Shown here: positions 9,484 to 44,796 of the stretch, piece by piece
Position numbering within the stretch: the stretch's first letter is position 1
Layout: every line of letters starts with the position of its first letter
DNA from: Treponema sp.
Lineage (GTDB): Bacteria > Spirochaetota > Spirochaetia > Treponematales > Breznakiellaceae
Direction of reading: 5' to 3'
NCBI GenBank assembly: GCA_009782495.1
Contig: WRIX01000001.1
Coordinates: forward strand, 4,583-68,582
Length of the DNA stretch: 64,000 nucleotides
Position numbers and translations under genes: made by a program
Notes under the pieces: model-generated
What the model saw: only the letters and a program-made list of their open reading frames with translations
What the model was told of the DNA's origin: nothing
The model's database searches: none

Positions 9484-9557
9484 GAGGTTGTAGCTCAGCT
9501 GGATAGAGCAGCAGATTGCGGATCTGCAGGTCGCACGTTCAAATCGTGTCAGCCTCA
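9484..9557 (+). tRNA. tRNA-Arg, anticodon GCG (hand-folded)
   Basis: Acceptor GAGGTTG/CAGCCTC. D arm GCTC-AGCTGGATA-GAGC. Anticodon stem GCAGA/TCTGC with loop TTGCGGA. T arm GCACG-TTCAAAT-CGTGT. Discriminator A. CCA is not encoded. Confidence 0.85.
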
Positions 9558-37412: not shown

Positions 37413-38477
37413 TTACTCCAGGTTCTTAAGAAAACTCTGCAAGAATTCCAGCGGCTTTATTTCCTTGTTTAAAATTTGATACAACCCTGTTGAGATTGGC
37501 ATCTTAAGCTTGAGTTTTTCTGAAAGTATTTTTATGTATTTTGCAGCTGCCGCTCCTTCGGGAAGATAGCCGATTTCTCCGATACGGGAAAGCAAATCAT
37601 CCAGATCCTTAAAAGAGTCCAAAATATTTTTTTCGACAATCTCCCGGCCAAAACGCCGGTTTCTGCCAAAGATCGAACGGCAGGTTACGTCCAAATCTCC
37701 CACTCCGGAAATAGAAGAAAAGGTTTCACTATGAGTGGATCCCATAGCTGTGCCAAGGATCAGTATCTCGTTGAGTCCTGCCGCAAGAAGCAGCGATTCG
37801 GTGTTGTCTCCGAACATTTCTTCTTCATCGTATGATCCTGTTTTTATGGCGTCCATAATTCCAAAGGCAATGGCGATTACATTCTTTGCCGCCGCCGCAA
37901 CCTGAACGCCGCGGACATCAAGCGATGCAAAAACCAAAAGACGGCGGCTTTTTAAAAGGTACCTGAAACGAATGGCATTTTTGGGGTTCTGGCTGGCCGA
38001 GATAAGACCGGTTATTTTACCGCGGGCGACTTCTTCCGCATGGCTGGGACCGGCTATATATACAAGAGACTTCCGGTAAAAACCGGGAAGGTAATCTTCC
38101 AGAGTATCCAAAATCAATGCAGGGCCGCTTGATGTTTCCAGGAAACCTTTAGTGATTACCGCTATAGCAGTATGTCCTTCCCGTATCGAATGTACCGCTA
38201 AAAGCTGTTTTACAGTGTGTAATAAAAAAAGAGACGGCACCGCCAGAATCAGAAATTCTCTGTCTGATACCGTTTCACTCATTCCGGTAAGCGCTTTAAG
38301 GGTTTCCGGTAGTGTAATCCCCGGCAAAAAACGATTATTTGTATGGTGTTTATTTATCTCGTCAGCGGTATCTTTTTCATAACACCAAATGGAAACTTCA
38401 TGGCCTTTTTCGGCAATAGCTTTGGCTACGGCAGTTCCCCATGCCCCCGCACCCAGAACAGCAACAGTGGATCGCAT
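37413..38477 (-). CDS. gpsA: NAD(P)H-dependent glycerol-3-phosphate dehydrogenase
   Basis: VLGAGAWGTAVA Rossmann motif, GPSHAEEVA, AAAKNVIAIA, NRRFG. Confidence 0.92.
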   Translation of the reverse strand: MRSTVAVLGAGAWGTAVAKAIAEKGHEVSIWCYEKDTADEINKHHTNNRFLPGITLPETLKALTGMSETVSDREFLILAVPSLFLLHTVKQLLAVHSIREGHTAIAVITKGFLETSSGPALILDTLEDYLPGFYRKSLVYIAGPSHAEEVARGKITGLISASQNPKNAIRFRYLLKSRRLLVFASLDVRGVQVAAAAKNVIAIAFGIMDAIKTGSYDEEEMFGDNTESLLLAAGLNEILILGTAMGSTHSETFSSISGVGDLDVTCRSIFGRNRRFGREIVEKNILDSFKDLDDLLSRIGEIGYLPEGAAAAKYIKILSEKLKLKMPISTGLYQILNKEIKPLEFLQSFLKNLE

Positions 38478-38515
38478 ATTGTCAGTATAACGGAGTACCG
38501 GATTATGTTAAAGCC

Positions 38516-39025
38516 TTAACCGCCAACCAGAAGGCGGCCAATATTGGCAAGTTCCGGCATTTTGACATGAAGGGGCATATGTCCCTTTGCATTGGCTTTA
38601 TCAAGATCGACGAGTTTGACAAATAGTTCGTTTACCAAATCGGCAAAGACCTGCAGGTTTGAGGCAAAATTATTTACTGCCATTTCTCTAAGCACCCTAT
38701 CCGATGAAGAAGGGTCTGATCTGCCCACCCGGCTGCGTATAGATGGCAGTTCCCGCCTTACTACCGATACGAAATGAGCGGCGGCTACGACTTCACGGTA
38801 CAATTCATCCAGGTGAATAGCCTGGGTTGGAGGCTTTTCGGTAAGGTCTTCCATCAGGTCCCAGGATTGATTGTCAAAGGGAAGCTGAAGCAGGGCGGGC
38901 CTGATAAACCGGTTGGAAATATTACTCCTGTAATGTTCACCTATTCGTTCAATAAGTCTGATTATGGAAGCATCCGAAACTTGCATTATATCCATTATAA
39001 ACCAAAATAAGAGTTTTACAAGCAC
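38516..39025 (-). CDS. Hypothetical protein
   Basis: 169-aa ORF with no motif I recognise. An alternative start MDIMQV lies about 33 nt inside. Confidence 0.45.
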   Translation of the reverse strand: MLVKLLFWFIMDIMQVSDASIIRLIERIGEHYRSNISNRFIRPALLQLPFDNQSWDLMEDLTEKPPTQAIHLDELYREVVAAAHFVSVVRRELPSIRSRVGRSDPSSSDRVLREMAVNNFASNLQVFADLVNELFVKLVDLDKANAKGHMPLHVKMPELANIGRLLVGG

Positions 39026-39054
39026 TATTTATGTAAATAAAACTTTAATTTAGC

Positions 39055-39234
39055 GAACTGAACACATCAATCTTTCCATATCGGTGGGGGGAAGAACACC
39101 CATTCAGACCATGGCGGTCGAGGCTGTCGTCGACGCACACTTTGGTGTGGCATCTTCTTCACCTCGCCGAATGGTCTTCATGGCTAACCTTCCCCCCACC
39201 TATGTGGCAACATTATCCCCGATGTGTTCAGTTC
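39055..39234. repeat. Structured element 1: 180-nt near-continuous hairpin with 14-nt terminal inverted repeats
   Basis: GAACTGAACACATC (39055-39068) pairs with GATGTGTTCAGTTC (39221-39234). GGTGGGGGGAAG (39083-39094) pairs with CTTCCCCCCACC (39189-39200). Further pairs are AGACCAT/ATGGTCT, CGAGG/CCTCG and an apical CACAC/GTGTG. No plausible ORF. Confidence 0.8.
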
Positions 39235-39425
39235 AGCAGAGATAAAATTATTGTGCCCCTAACTGCGCTCCCGTGCACTGGCTGTGGGCAGCGCTTTAAT
39301 TACCTATCAAAAAAGTACTGCATCTAAGTGTTTTCAGCCCTTTTCCAGCATTATTTCGGCTCATGGTATGACAGATGCTTAGCAGCAAATTACCGTTTAC
39401 ATCCATCGGAAAAACCTTAACGTAA

Positions 39426-39703
39426 CGAACTGAACATATCGAATTTTATGTTACAACATAGGTAGGTGGTTGCTTATGAAGCATATACGTGAACATGCTT
39501 GCCCCACAGGAGGGGAAGCCTGACCTGACGGGGACTTTCGGCGTGCAACAACAGCAGCCATGCCAAAGCATGCGTAAACGGCAGCCACGACCGGCGTCCC
39601 CGCTCAGGGCAGATTCCCCTTTATGTGGGGTAAAATGGTTCGGAATGTGCTTCATTGATAACCTTTATCTTTACGGTATAGGAAACTTGATGCGTTCAGT
39701 TCG
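39426..39703. repeat. Structured element 2: 278-nt paralog of element 1 with the same termini
   Basis: GAACTGAACATATC (39427-39440) pairs with GATGCGTTCAGTTC (39689-39702). Inner stems are CCCCACA/TGTGGGG, AGGGGAA/TTCCCCT and GGGGAC/GTCCCC. It shares the TTCCCC..TATGTGG segment with element 1. Confidence 0.8.
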
Positions 39704-39736
39704 GTAAATTGTGGTTTTTATTCGCATTGCAAAACC

Positions 39737-39763
39737 TTAACTTGATAAACCGGATGCCGATAA
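39737..39763 (+). promoter_or_regulatory. Sigma-28 (FliA)-type promoter
   Basis: TTAA, 15-nt spacer, GCCGATAA (39756-39763), against the consensus TAAA-N15-GCCGATAA. About 16 nt upstream of the next ORF. Confidence 0.55.
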
Positions 39764-39778
39764 TAAAATGAGGATAAT

Positions 39779-40162
39779 GTGATGAGAATATCGGGTGTTA
39801 CAGCGTTTCCAAACCTTGGTTATGCCTTTTCTAGCTCCAGTTCGGGCAGGATGTCCCTTCCTGTTAATCCGGGCAGCTATATTTACTCACAATTTAAGCA
39901 TGTTGGCGGCGTTCCTGCTCCGGAAGGAACCAATGGAGTAGCTGTTACCAAGCTAAAAATCCTCGATGTACTGATTGAGCAGCTGCACCAGATAAAAAAA
40001 CAGCCCACGCTTAATACAAAAGACCTTTCCAACGAACAAATTGATGCGTTGATCAGCAAATATGAAGGCCAAATCAAGGCTGCCACGGCTGCCAACAACG
40101 TAATGCCCTATACTCCCGCCCCCCAGGTTCCCGCAGGTATGCTTTTCGACATTTCTGCATAA
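39779..40162 (+). CDS. Hypothetical protein (possible sigma-28 regulon member)
   Basis: 127-aa ORF starting at GTG 39779 or ATG 39782, preceded by GAGGA. No recognised domain. Confidence 0.5.
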   Translation: MMRISGVTAFPNLGYAFSSSSSGRMSLPVNPGSYIYSQFKHVGGVPAPEGTNGVAVTKLKILDVLIEQLHQIKKQPTLNTKDLSNEQIDALISKYEGQIKAATAANNVMPYTPAPQVPAGMLFDISA

Positions 40163-40196
40163 ATCAAGTTGTGCAATTCCTGACTAAATCGCACTT

Positions 40197-41555
40197 TTAT
40201 CCCATTTCTGCCGCTGTTTCGTAAATTGTCCTGTAAACAAAGGTAATTTCTTCTTCTTCGATGGCGGCAAAGGTAACCCGAAGGTATTCGTCTCCCAGGG
40301 CTATGGTTCCAATTCCTTTTTTTAACAGGTTTTGGCGGAGTTTTTCCGCTCCGCCCGGTTTGCCGTTTTCTTTACAGCGGAAACTCATAAAATAGCCTGA
40401 GTTAAACGGGAGCGGTTCCAGACTGGGCGGCGCAGTGTTTTCCGTAATAAACTGTTTGACTGTTCTGTAGCGGCTGTAAAGCAAATCGAAGAAAACTTTT
40501 TTTTCTGCTTCAGTTGCCGGGTTTTCCCAGGTTTTTAGCGCAAGGTTTTGCGCCGGTGTATTGGTGCAGGAAACGGAAGAACGTATAATTCCCATACATT
40601 TTTTTTCCAGTGCGGCATAGGCGCTTTCGTTAAGTCCCCTGGAACCAAAGCTGATAAATGCAGTCCGCAAACCCCAGACATAGTCTTCTTTGGTGGGGCC
40701 GTCTATTTTAACCGCAAGTACCTTTTCGTGGAGATGCGCAAAACGGCCAAAGAGGGATTCCTTGATTATATTTTCTTCGTAAAAGAGGCCAAAATAGGCA
40801 TCATCACAAATTACCAGTACCGATGCGCCGCTTTCCGCACATTCCTTAATCATGGCAACAAGGGCGTCCGCTTCGGTTTTAAGAGGAGTATAGCCCGAAG
40901 GATTTTGCGGAAAGTTCAGGATTATTCGCACCATACCGGCAGCCGTGCCGGCTTTGCCGGCAGCAGCTTCGGTTTTAAGAGCCTTTTCAAATGCCGCCAG
41001 GTTGAGTCCGCCTGCATCACTGAAAAGAGAAATGCCTTTAAGCTCCGCTCCCCGGCGTTCTGTAAAAATCAGGTTGTAATTGTCCCAGGACGGATCGGCG
41101 GCAAGCATCACCTGGCCTTCGTCCAGAAAAAGGTCGGCTATATAGGAAATTCCCGCTGTGATCCCCGGAACAACCACAGGCAGGGAAAAATCTTCATCCT
41201 TCAGGGAAGGGGTCTTCTTTATTAACGAAGCTTTCCAGGCTTTACGGAATGATTCAATTCCGGCGGTGGGGGCATAAACCACCAATTCTTCGGGGGTCAG
41301 GCCCGGTAATTGGCTGAGCAGGGGAGAAAGCGCAAGAGGTTTTCCTCCCTTAAATGCCATGCCCAGTGTGGCGTTTATTTTGGCGGTTTTTTTTGCTTCT
41401 GCAGATTGTGCTATTATTCCGCGGGGGAAAAAAAGGCGCCGTCCCAAGGATGATAAAAATGGGCCTACAATGCCGGCGTCCAGTATTTCGTTTAATTCGG
41501 TTGCAAGTGGGTTGATCATACTGTAACCATACACGTTCTTTGTTTGTTGTAACAA
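40197..41555 (-). CDS. Class I/II PLP-dependent aminotransferase
   Basis: Fold-type I pattern: NFPQNPSGYT, VICDDAYFGLFYE, KIDGPTKEDYVWGLRTAF. Start may be MINPL at about 41519. Confidence 0.75.
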   Translation of the reverse strand: MLQQTKNVYGYSMINPLATELNEILDAGIVGPFLSSLGRRLFFPRGIIAQSAEAKKTAKINATLGMAFKGGKPLALSPLLSQLPGLTPEELVVYAPTAGIESFRKAWKASLIKKTPSLKDEDFSLPVVVPGITAGISYIADLFLDEGQVMLAADPSWDNYNLIFTERRGAELKGISLFSDAGGLNLAAFEKALKTEAAAGKAGTAAGMVRIILNFPQNPSGYTPLKTEADALVAMIKECAESGASVLVICDDAYFGLFYEENIIKESLFGRFAHLHEKVLAVKIDGPTKEDYVWGLRTAFISFGSRGLNESAYAALEKKCMGIIRSSVSCTNTPAQNLALKTWENPATEAEKKVFFDLLYSRYRTVKQFITENTAPPSLEPLPFNSGYFMSFRCKENGKPGGAEKLRQNLLKKGIGTIALGDEYLRVTFAAIEEEEITFVYRTIYETAAEMG

Positions 41556-42324: not shown

Positions 42325-43338
42325 TTACTGAGTTGAATATTTTTTCCAGTCGGAAGGGGCAATCCCTGTCTTATGTTTAAAAAGCCTGGAAAAATAGTAC
42401 TGGTCTTCAAAACCCATGCGCCATGCTGCTTCTTTAACGGAGATGTTTTCTTCGCTGAGGATTTCTTCGGCTTTGTGGATCTTAAGCTGGATAAAGTATT
42501 GATACGGAGTCATAGAACTGAATTGTTTAAAAACTTCATTCAGCCGGGAAGTACTGATTCCGATTTGAGCAGCGATACCCGGTATATTGATATCTCCGGC
42601 TATGTTTTTTTCCATTAGGTATTTTGCTTTTTCTACTGTTTGCTGGTAGAAATCCGGTTGTTCCTGACGTCTGGAACGTGAGAGCATTTCTGTAATAAGG
42701 GTAAGTACGGCGGAACAGGCCTTCATCTGGTAAAGCGGTTTTTGGAATTTGACCTCATCAAAAATTTTTTTAAAAATCGCAGTAAAGTAATCGTTTTGGC
42801 CAATATTAAAAAATGATCTGTCTTCCGAAAGCAGTCCCTGTTTGGCAAGACGGTTAAAAAAGCTTCCCTTAAAACCCACCCAATATTCCTGCCAGCCTGT
42901 TTCCTTTTTTGGATAATAAAAATGTTTCAGTCCCGGAAGAATCAAAAACATGGAGCCGGGGATTACATCCCGGGTTTTGCCCGCGGAACAAAAAATCCCG
43001 TTTCCTTCTGTTATATAAATTATCTGATATTCGGGGAGTACTCTTCCTTCGGCCACAGGACGGAATGGAGCAGGATGCTTTTCTTTTACAGGCGGATAAA
43101 CCGTACCCGGAGCAATGTTTTGGCTGCCGGCCGTGGTACAAACCATGCCCAGCCTTTCGTCTTCTTTACTGTACGGAAGATAATGCCAAAACCCCCAGTC
43201 GCCTTCACCTGTACTGGCGTTTTCCGGCTGCCCGGTCTTCTCCATAATAAAACAGTATTGCATGTTTTGTCCATCCCCGCAAGAGAAAAGTCCATGAAAG
43301 TTATTTGTTTTTTCCATGTGATTAGGAGAATTGTCCAT
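42325..43338 (-). CDS. AraC-family transcriptional regulator (cupin plus HTH)
   Basis: C-terminal [18 protein letters not shown]...[17 protein letters not shown]...[16 protein letters not shown]. Start uncertain. Confidence 0.85.
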
Positions 43339-43374
43339 TTACGAAAACTGCTTTTTCGATGGAAAATTAAAACC

Positions 43375-44796
43375 ATGTCACAGTACAGGATTGGCTTATT
43401 CGGGATTGGGCTAGACACTTATTGGGGTCAGTTCGACGGCCTTTTGGACCGGCTTAAAGGCTATCAAAAGATCATCGCCGGAAAGCTTGAAAAATCCGGA
43501 CTGGAAATAATCGACGCAGGTCTTGTAGACAATCCCGATAAAGCACGCGAAGCAGCCGCTCTTTTTGCGGAAAAAAAGGCAGAGGCTGTTTTTCTATATA
43601 TCTCCACCTATGCGCTTTCCCACACGGTTCTTCCGGTGGCTCAAAACCTTAAAGTCCCGGTAATTGTTTTAAACCTTCAGCCTGTTCCGGCTATTGATTA
43701 CGGCAGTTTTAATACATTGGGCGACCGGGGAAAAATGACCGGTGAATGGCTTGCCCATTGTCAGGCCTGTTGTGTTCCCGAAATTGCCAATGTGTTTAAC
43801 AATGCAGATCTTAATTATGATATAGTAACCGGCTGGCTCCAGGACGAAGAAGCCTGGAAGGAAATTGATGACTGGTGTGCCGCTATACACACAAAAGCCA
43901 AACTAAGGGATACACGAATCGGCATTCTGGGTCACTATTACTGCGGTATGCTTGATGTTTATACCGATGTAACCCGCCTTGCCGCCGTTTTTGGAAATCA
44001 CTTTGAACTTCTGGAAATTGATGAACTTAAATCTCTGCGGGATGAAATAAGCGCTCAGCACATCAAAGAAAAACGGCAGCAATTTGAAAAAGAATTTGCC
44101 GTTTCCCCTGAATGTGAAGAAACTGAACTGGTCAGGGCCGCTCTGACTTCCTGTGCTTTGGATGCACTTGTTGAAAAGAAACGGCTTGGTGCAATGGCTT
44201 ATTATTACGAAGGCTGGGCGGGGAACGATCATGAAAACATCGTCAGCTCGGTAATTGCAGGTAACACCCTGCTTACGGCTCACGAAGTGCCTGTAGCCGG
44301 TGAATGTGAAGTAAAAAATGTTGTGGCCATGAAAATCATGGACATCATGGGAGCCGGCGGCTCTTTTTCCGAATTCTATGCAATGGATTTTAACGACGAT
44401 GTAGTATTGTGGGGGCACGACGGCCCGGCTCATGCGGCCATTGCCGAAGGAAAAGTTGCTCTTGTACCTCTGCCTGTTTACCACGGCAAACCTGGGAAAG
44501 GCCTTTCAATTCAAATGAGTGTAAAGAACGGGCCTGTAACTTTATTGGCAGTTGTTCAGGGAAAGGGCGGTTCTACTTCCTTTCTCTGTGCCGAAGGTCA
44601 GTCGGTGCCGGGACCGGTATTGCAGATTGGAAATACCAACAGCCGGTACCGATTTGGTATTGGGGCAAAGGAATTTGTAAACCGCTGGTCCAAAGCAGGT
44701 CCTGCCCATCACAGCGCCATTGGTGTTGGTTATCTGGCAGGCAAACTGGAAAAGCTGGGGAAACTGCTGGGGATTCCTGTCGTGCGGATTTGTTAA
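43375..44796 (+). CDS. L-arabinose/L-fucose isomerase-like sugar isomerase
   Basis: ATG 43375 (MSQYRIGLFGIGLDTYWGQF). The track ORF from 42922 overlaps the AraC gene. Family assignment is from N-terminal similarity as recalled. Confidence 0.55.
   Translation: MSQYRIGLFGIGLDTYWGQFDGLLDRLKGYQKIIAGKLEKSGLEIIDAGLVDNPDKAREAAALFAEKKAEAVFLYISTYALSHTVLPVAQNLKVPVIVLNLQPVPAIDYGSFNTLGDRGKMTGEWLAHCQACCVPEIANVFNNADLNYDIVTGWLQDEEAWKEIDDWCAAIHTKAKLRDTRIGILGHYYCGMLDVYTDVTRLAAVFGNHFELLEIDELKSLRDEISAQHIKEKRQQFEKEFAVSPECEETELVRAALTSCALDALVEKKRLGAMAYYYEGWAGNDHENIVSSVIAGNTLLTAHEVPVAGECEVKNVVAMKIMDIMGAGGSFSEFYAMDFNDDVVLWGHDGPAHAAIAEGKVALVPLPVYHGKPGKGLSIQMSVKNGPVTLLAVVQGKGGSTSFLCAEGQSVPGPVLQIGNTNSRYRFGIGAKEFVNRWSKAGPAHHSAIGVGYLAGKLEKLGKLLGIPVVRIC

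Follow-up and report, generated by a model that had tools for sequence, protein, structure and literature searches.

A lineage-specific family of non-coding, probably mobile hairpin repeats in termite-gut Treponema

Imperfect palindromic intergenic repeats of ~100–130 nt occur in many copies in enterobacteria (ERIC/IRU) and pneumococci (RUP and BOX), and PATEs, which are non-autonomous derivatives of IS200/IS605, carry a small subterminal hairpin at each end. Correia elements are characterized by a TA duplication, IHF sites and promoter-creating ends. REPINs, as described by Bertels and Rainey, possess conserved ends and a variable, hairpin-forming spacer in which compensatory changes are frequent; in the GI REPIN, for instance, the two terminal 16-mers are 71 bp apart, counted from first base to first base (PMC3116915). 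Correia elements are reported to act at the RNA level, involving RNase III (PMC2649163), and Spirochaetes, including Treponema, are reported to be rich in miniature inverted-repeat elements (MITEs) (PMC11602168).

Here, we describe two long hairpins, E1 and E2, located between divergent genes in a 64,000-nt stretch of Treponema sp. DNA (hereafter, the window; contig WRIX01000001.1 of assembly GCA_009782495.1), and compare them with related sequences from other contigs and loci, which are designated by L numbers. We consider it probable that E1 and E2 belong to a lineage-specific family of non-coding, non-autonomous hairpin repeats of termite-gut Treponema, akin to foldback MITEs or REPINs, and we infer the mobility of these repeats from their distribution.

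Two abutting hairpins inserted between divergent genes

E1 occupies positions 39055–39234 of the window, and its ends, GAACTGAACACATC (39055–39068) and GATGTGTTCAGTTC (39221–39234), form a perfect 14-bp terminal inverted repeat, exactly as the original prediction had it. The 180 nt fold into one single rod that comprises every helix listed in that prediction, namely a 12-bp helix (GGTGGGGGGAAG/CTTCCCCCCACC), CCAT/ATGG, AGACCAT/ATGGTCT, CGG/CCG, CGAGG/CCTCG and the apical CACAC-TTTG-GTGTG. The minimum free energy of this fold is -90.6 kcal/mol, compared with -49.8 ± 4.1 kcal/mol for 200 dinucleotide shuffles, none of which folded as well (z = -9.9); under DNA folding parameters, z = -10.9. When the entire window was folded in sliding 200-nt segments, the two most stable structures were E1 and the neighboring E2 region, 370 nt downstream. 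E2 (39427–39702; 276 nt) shares the E1 termini, GAACTGAAC-RY-ATC; its fold has a free energy of -125.9 kcal/mol (z = -9.6). It represents a long subtype, with the termini, subterminal motif and apical region as in E1, plus an extra stem of ~47 nt per arm; a second member of this subtype is present in L156, and its extra stem carries compensatory changes. A further hairpin in the window, of 141 nt (44560–44700; -57.5 kcal/mol, z = -3.7), is unrelated by sequence to the E family and lies at the 3' end of an open reading frame (ORF; 42922–44796), before the next gene.

The inverted repeat of E1 runs ~16 nt past the ends originally given, into an outer terminal motif that we denote D. The window contains three D motifs, at 39039–39054, 39410–39426 and 39703–39719, all at the E1/E2 locus, against 0.74 expected by chance. 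Whereas the predicted 180-nt hairpin exists, it is not a stand-alone unit, but one core within a ~680-nt composite of two abutting elements. Element 1 (39039–39398) has the organization D-E1-C-B arm-D' and element 2 (39410–39719) the organization D-E2-D', with a recurring 11-nt junction between them. The features of the locus are listed below, the strand given for E1 and E2 being the better-folding one, denoted alpha.

38516–38995, minus strand: left flanking gene, encoding a conserved hypothetical protein of 156–159 aa of termite-gut Treponema, with hundreds of homologs labeled Treponema or Spirochaetaceae
39039–39054, plus strand: outer terminal motif D, AAAACTTTAATTTAGC, extending the E1 terminal inverted repeat; left end of the inserted block; D flanks E- and F-type cores at many loci
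39055–39234, minus strand (alpha): E1, the 180-nt hairpin core, recognized by its fold and by nhmmer and included in alignment A3
39235–39334: module C, a repeat-associated spacer holding a GC hairpin (39265–39294), kept beside copies in L038, L016 and L130 at 84–93% identity
39335–39398: remnant of an F-type outer arm (module B), ending in an inverted D, AGCAAATTACCGTTT, at 39384–39398; homologous to the spacers of the L040, L103 and L156 pairs and to module B of the giant hairpins
39399–39409: junction of ~11 nt, ACATCCATCGG, between the two abutting elements; directly precedes D and the core in L089 and L149, and is present as CATCCGTTAT in L060
39410–39426, plus strand: D motif, AAAAACCTTAACGTAAC, left terminus of element 2
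39427–39702, plus strand (alpha): E2, the 276-nt long core variant, recognized by its fold and by the second member in L156
39703–39719, minus strand: inverted D motif, GGTAAATTGTGGTTTTT, right end of the inserted block, beyond which lies unique sequence that aligns with the empty-site relatives
39731–39746, plus strand: solo D-like sequence, AAAACCTTAACTTGAT, within the ancestral intergenic sequence, resembling the L164 empty site by eye
39782–40162, plus strand: right flanking gene, TP_0700 family (PF27400)

Read from left to right, the locus comprises MCP, HTH, gpsA, the 159-aa gene (minus), E1, spacer, E2, the TP_0700 gene (plus), aminotransferase and Smr. Inspection of ORFs and genes confirmed that the gap between the divergent genes is gene-free and holds no credible ORF, those found there being mirror-image artifacts without conservation. 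One promoter-like site (39021 to 38994) is located between E1 and the left gene and another (39742–39769) between E2 and the TP_0700-family gene, so that the two hairpins occupy the promoter-free center of the intergenic region. The solo D-like sequence at 39731–39746 may be a remnant or a preferred target. E1 (alpha minus) and E2 (alpha plus) are arranged head-to-head, and the same arrangement, with a homologous spacer of 112–190 nt, recurs in L040, L103 and L156; a head-to-head pair with a longer spacer, of 281 nt, is found in L124.

The GC hairpin at 39265–39294 had been proposed to terminate a plus-strand transcript, a proposal that we discard. A terminator scan did not report this hairpin, and its GC stem lacks a directly following T-tract, the tail being only TTT and then AATT. 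The hairpin belongs to the conserved repeat module C, which recurs beside copies at three other loci; the tail reads TTTAATT in the window, and the three other module C copies have TTTAGCGCC. The hairpin is positioned upstream of the 5' end of the E1 alpha strand.

The window stems from a termite-gut Treponema, and the contigs closest to it derive from JGI metagenome 3300002505 and from ENA assemblies. E1 and E2 are identical in contig L001, which comes from a separate assembly, and E1 is complete in L003 and partial in L002 and L004; its recurrence in separately assembled contigs indicates that it is not an assembly artifact. In several assemblies, contigs stop at the apex of the hairpin or continue into the flank of a different copy (L002, which ends at window position 39126, L003, L004, L034, L149 and L151). 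The divergence of L003 after 39297, considered as a strain difference, is more likely an assembler jump, the shared stretch being module C, which is also present in L016, L038 and L130. In an alignment of the window with the 99.8%-identical L001, 14 of the 15 mismatches within 38400–40299 fall in 39856–40016, inside the TP_0700-family gene, which makes this segment a local patch of hypervariability or recombination within a gene whose function is unknown.

The same divergent gene pair is found in relatives with 82–90% protein identity (L164, 90%; L165, 85%; L008, L009, L011 and L012, 82–84%), in which ~86–240 nt separate the genes and no hairpin is present. The short, hairpin-free gap of the relatives identifies the ~680-nt block 39039–39719 as an insertion, and ancestral flanks are recognizable on both of its sides. 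In L162 and L163, only the 16-nt outer D motif is left at the site, and in a closer relative, the metagenome-assembled genome (MAG) Nt197P3bin20 (L005–L007), only the first 54 nt of E1 remain. The locus is thereby polymorphic for the insertion, the presence/absence difference that had been proposed as a check, with empty sites, an E1 stump (L005) and a solo D (L162). In L005 (2380–3640), as well as in L006 and L007, the stump abuts a 240-aa gene, together with tRNA-Phe and a phage-integrase island, and the closest related genome thus has a rearrangement breakpoint at the hairpin locus. At another site, next to a phosphate-binding-protein-like gene, L029 (1–845) and L103 (247–1090) are orthologous and 93.6% identical, with a hairpin at the same position; the flanking modules differ, and a second, inverted copy is present in only one of the two. 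Repeat modules turn over quickly between these loci. At ~12 inspected ends, which are A/T-rich, have approximate limits and are compared with empty sites that are not near-identical, no consistent direct repeat indicative of target-site duplication was found.

A dispersed, modular family with conserved pairing

The original prediction had offered an ERIC/RUP-like palindromic mobile element as one candidate and a search for further copies as a way to assess it. That candidate is the one sustained by the results, with many dispersed intergenic copies, empty sites in relatives, conserved termini and a variable interior. A pattern combining the terminal and subterminal motifs yielded 38 matches among 185,579 species genomes; eight of these are on different contigs of one MAG, Treponema sp. 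Nt197P3bin20, and the other 30 are single and scattered, compared with ~34 expected by chance according to our own calculation. A metagenome scan followed by an nhmmer profile search recovered ~28 distinct copies or fragments, all in two termite-gut metagenomes, Ga0082212 and JGI24704J35079; E1 scores 195.7 bits against the family profile (E = 2.6e-58). All copies are intergenic and their neighbors are unrelated, including gyrA, serS, mnmG, secA, rho, hexokinase and ABC transporters. No copies beyond E1 and E2 were detected in the window by the pattern search, blastn with word size 7 or the nhmmer profile. The phage and plasmid collections gave no blastn match to the family, and none of the four matches from a scan of viral contigs fit the family profile.

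The family displays several of the hallmarks by which MITEs are recognized, the insertion polymorphism described above among them. The elements are small and non-coding (180–380 nt, within the MITE range of about 50–800 bp, with indels that are not multiples of three); they are bounded by terminal inverted repeats (14 bp perfect, or ~30 nt with the 16-nt D) common to the E and F types described below; and they are dispersed in many copies in one genome, being present on at least eight contigs of Nt197P3bin20 with different neighbors on each.

The termini of the elements, ~30 nt in length, consist of D (AAAACC.YAAY.TA.C, 16 nt) followed by G.CTGARC..CAT.C and are inverted around the variable interior. 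The copies are polar, with the 5' arm of the alpha strand reading GAACTGAACRCATCG..ATGTTGCCACATAGGTGGG..GGTTA..CATGAAGACCATT and the 3' arm ATGGTCTGAATGGGTGTTC..CCCACCGATATGGGAAGATTGATGTGTTCAGT. The core occurs in several forms: alone (~212 nt with the termini), lengthened by an extra stem as in E2, or nested in a palindrome of ~380 nt. These giant hairpins, found at many loci, consist of the core flanked by two outer arms, A and B, of ~95 nt each, which are mutually reverse-complementary and terminate in D and GCTGAGCCTGGCATAC. The same outer arms can hold a different core. In the F hairpins of ~310 nt (L089, 840–1150; L149, 240–590; L151, 1560–1763; L060, 115–440), the outer arms and D termini are the same and the E core is replaced by CCCTGTACCAAACC...GGTTTGGTACAGGG, which makes F a sister family with common ends. 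The E and F types share the ~30-nt termini and differ in their interiors, as would be expected if one enzyme recognized the ends. In L016 (3435–3643) and L040 (2292–2496), a small additional hairpin (GACCGCTTTCGCGGTC or GACCACTTTCGTGGTC, with flanks) is located in the apical part, forming a smaller nested palindrome.

Alignment A3, which comprises 19 canonical copies, has a consensus fold of 57 pairs, and the pairing is conserved, whereas the sequence is not. Among the stem cells of A3, 97.1% pair, compared with 91.0% in shuffles and ~40% when the partners are slid. Compensatory double changes, including the transversions UA<->AU, GC<->CG and CG<->GC, are present in 21 of the 57 pairs, although this count and that of G:T cells overstate the number of independent events, given that the copies are akin by descent and recombine. 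None of 500 shuffles reached the observed pairing values, and the pattern is far beyond the controls despite the kinship of the copies. One short motif in an imperfectly paired part of the 5' arm, TGTTGCCA, is invariant in A3, which suggests sequence-specific recognition.

The two strands are not equivalent. The alpha strand folds better than its complement in all 16 copies measured, and the stem cells include 112 G:T against 12 A:C combinations, the former again counted over related copies. The G:T states are at high frequency or fixed, whereas the A:C states are singletons or doubletons (Mann-Whitney p = 0.02). This asymmetry points to selection acting on one folded single strand, be it RNA or single-stranded DNA. 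The orientation of the copies relative to neighboring genes shows no significant bias (13 same and 9 opposite for upstream genes; 12 same and 8 opposite for downstream genes), which weakens the idea of obligatory co-transcription.

Competing explanations and a possible mechanism

The strongest case for a different interpretation can be made for a functional structured RNA family, in which alpha-strand transcripts would act as sRNA or double-stranded RNA, or as a cis element altering mRNA stability through RNase III, with the stem kept by selection. Selection on transcribed RNA would equally produce compensatory evolution and strand bias, and the strong covariation, the tolerance of G:U and avoidance of A:C, and the better folding of alpha in every measured copy would all fit. 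Furthermore, both cores in the window point toward the adjacent genes, several copies lie, in the same orientation, 48–80 nt ahead of genes such as gyrA and serS, and Correia elements provide a precedent for RNA-level action of such repeats (PMC2649163). Nevertheless, we regard this explanation as rather improbable. As the original prediction had noted, there is no match to known RNA families: within 38900–39850, the Rfam search returned nothing relevant even at E ≤ 10, and in the entire window the only match at the gathering threshold was a tRNA gene (9484–9557; 65 bits). The 6S RNA, likewise a ~180-nt rod, was considered and discarded for lack of an Rfam match. No conserved promoter or terminator was found: the putative terminator has no T-tract and precedes the alpha 5' end, and neither a scan nor visual reading of the D motif, module B and the junction revealed a convincing sigma-70 site reading into the hairpins. 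The promoter-like sites of the window lie between hairpin and gene, placing the hairpins outside the 5' UTRs; the orientation relative to neighboring genes is not significantly biased; close relatives lack the element at the E1/E2 locus; and the mosaic, nested and truncated copies resemble selfish DNA. The absence of an Rfam match, of a convincing promoter or terminator and of significant orientation bias also speaks against the other candidate of the original prediction, a novel structured sRNA encoded by a single-copy gene. Improbable, too, is a classical MITE that arose from a DDE-type IS bounded by long terminal inverted repeats and moved by double-stranded cut-and-paste, the hairpin potential being a by-product of fused IS ends. 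This would account for the inverted ends, the short length, the scatter of copies over intergenic sites and the subfamilies with common ends, and would suit Treponema genomes, reported as MITE-rich (PMC11602168), but it predicts neither compensatory pairing along whole 90-nt arms nor strand asymmetry. Moreover, no target-site duplication is detectable at the inspected ends and no IS with these ends was seen in the sequence examined.

The termini ACTGAAC / GTTCAGT differ by one base from the attC consensus, which raises the question of integron attC-like or other site-specific recombination sites, with a folded single strand being read by a tyrosine recombinase. The attC consensus is RYYYAAC / GTTRRRY, attC sites measure 57–141 bp and are recognized by structure and by strand, and chromosomal integrons are known in Treponema; such recognition would fit the covariation. 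However, the copies are single or form inverted pairs between housekeeping genes rather than co-oriented arrays following cassette ORFs, the elements, at 180–380 nt, are longer than attC, and no integron integrase is encoded nearby, the sole integrase seen (L005) being part of the tRNA-Phe island, which renders this explanation very improbable. A chance palindrome or an assembly artifact would be consistent with the breaks and jumps of assemblers at the locus, where L002 breaks off at the apex and the divergence of L003 and L004 falls within the repeat, but we assign it a negligible probability in view of the fold (z = -9.9), the same sequence in separate assemblies and the ~28 related copies with covariation.

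Returning to the mobile hairpin repeat that we favor, the combination of no consistent target-site duplication, compensatory evolution and strand bias appears to resemble REPINs and IS200/IS605-type single-stranded transposition (PMC3116915) more closely than double-stranded cut-and-paste. In this view, the two abutting elements (39039–39398 and 39410–39719) were inserted where a conserved gene pair has a neutral zone between its divergent promoters, and the only constraint on the variable interior would be the pairing of the two arms. We hypothesize, with somewhat less than even confidence even if the repeats are mobile hairpins, that a transposase acting in trans recognizes the folded alpha strand through the shared termini and makes copies. 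Such a transposase would most likely be of the HUH/Y1 type (IS200/IS605- or RAYT-like), acting on single-stranded DNA, and an enzyme with this substrate would explain jointly why no consistent target-site duplication is seen, why pairing is selected for and why one strand folds better. In the ~1 Mb of sequence examined, there was no transposase with matching ends. A tblastn search of the copy-bearing loci with an approximate IS200 TnpA query as a Y1 probe gave no match, a weak negative given the small sequence set. The sole transposase near a copy belongs to an rve-type IS in L075 (4445–5815; 415 aa), ~200 nt from a hairpin; its terminal repeats, ATGCCTCAAAATAAAA, are unrelated to those of the family, and it was rejected as the parent. 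Read-through transcription of a copy would yield a long RNA duplex, a plausible substrate for RNase III as in Correia elements, although this would be a side effect and not the reason for the existence of the family.

A bolder interpretation is that the repeats represent an undescribed single-strand replicator system in Spirochaetes, driven by an HUH/Y1-type or other enzyme, or alternatively that they form long double-stranded RNA hairpins, as a family, and serve the host in that form; we consider this unlikely. In the replicator version, the enzyme would read the folded alpha strand through the shared ~30-nt termini and add new hairpins mainly where existing ones have their ends or apices, which would give rise to the observed 'onion' palindromes of 210, 310 and 380 nt.

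Relationship to described systems and implications

Among the described systems, REPINs share with the Treponema repeats the conserved inverted terminal motifs, the less conserved spacer, the hairpin formed by the whole unit and the frequent compensatory changes, and both systems display extragenic dispersal, higher-order clusters and singlet or truncated remnants (PMC3116915). Inverted end motifs around a variable spacer and a hairpin kept by compensatory changes, both part of the definition of REPINs, are found here (97.1% paired; 21 of 57 pairs). Unlike REPINs, the Treponema elements are much longer (180–380 nt), their cores are nested in larger palindromes, no RAYT was found in the loci examined, and the hosts are Spirochaetes rather than Proteobacteria or Cyanobacteria. 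Nor is the terminal motif a short REP-type palindrome, that is, an imperfect palindrome of 20–40 nt: upon inspection of A3, the E1 terminal GAACTGAACACATC and the D motif contain no internal palindrome, with only a 4-bp mini-stem, ATGT-TGCC-ACAT, further in.

The Correia elements (CREE/NEMIS) of Neisseria are similar in being intergenic, ~100–150 nt or more in length, bounded by terminal inverted repeats and able to form a hairpin when transcribed, in differing in presence or absence between strains, and in possible effects on neighboring genes through RNase III (PMC2649163). They bear no sequence relationship to the Treponema elements, in which none of the TA duplication, IHF sites or promoter-creating ends of Correia elements was found. 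In comparison with ERIC/IRU, RUP and BOX, the Treponema repeats are likewise imperfect palindromic, multi-copy and intergenic, but belong to other taxa, are unrelated in sequence, and are longer, more perfectly paired, modular and nested. With PATEs, they share small size and non-coding nature and, as far as the ~12 inspected ends show, the lack of a consistent target-site duplication, and they would also share dependence on one strand and on folded single-stranded DNA; in contrast to PATEs, the Treponema element is one hairpin spanning its whole length, and no TnpA was found in the loci examined. The hairpin family stands outside the REPIN, MITE, Correia and ERIC sequence families, though working alike, and no description of it was found in the literature searched. 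We regard it as a previously undescribed family whose kind is known, rather than as a new RNA gene.

This assignment removes a false lead, since the notion of E1 as a novel single-copy sRNA that carries its own terminator does not hold. In practical terms, such palindromes break and mis-join metagenome assemblies, mark rearrangement hot spots and could serve as strain markers. Three features are of note: the strong compensatory signal, the bias toward one strand and the nesting of the architecture. If the replicator interpretation were true, the system would be REPIN-RAYT-like and vertically persisting, outside the known phyla and with much larger structured units. Being unusually well paired, modular and strand-biased, the family offers a natural case for weighing single-strand transposition against RNA-level function.
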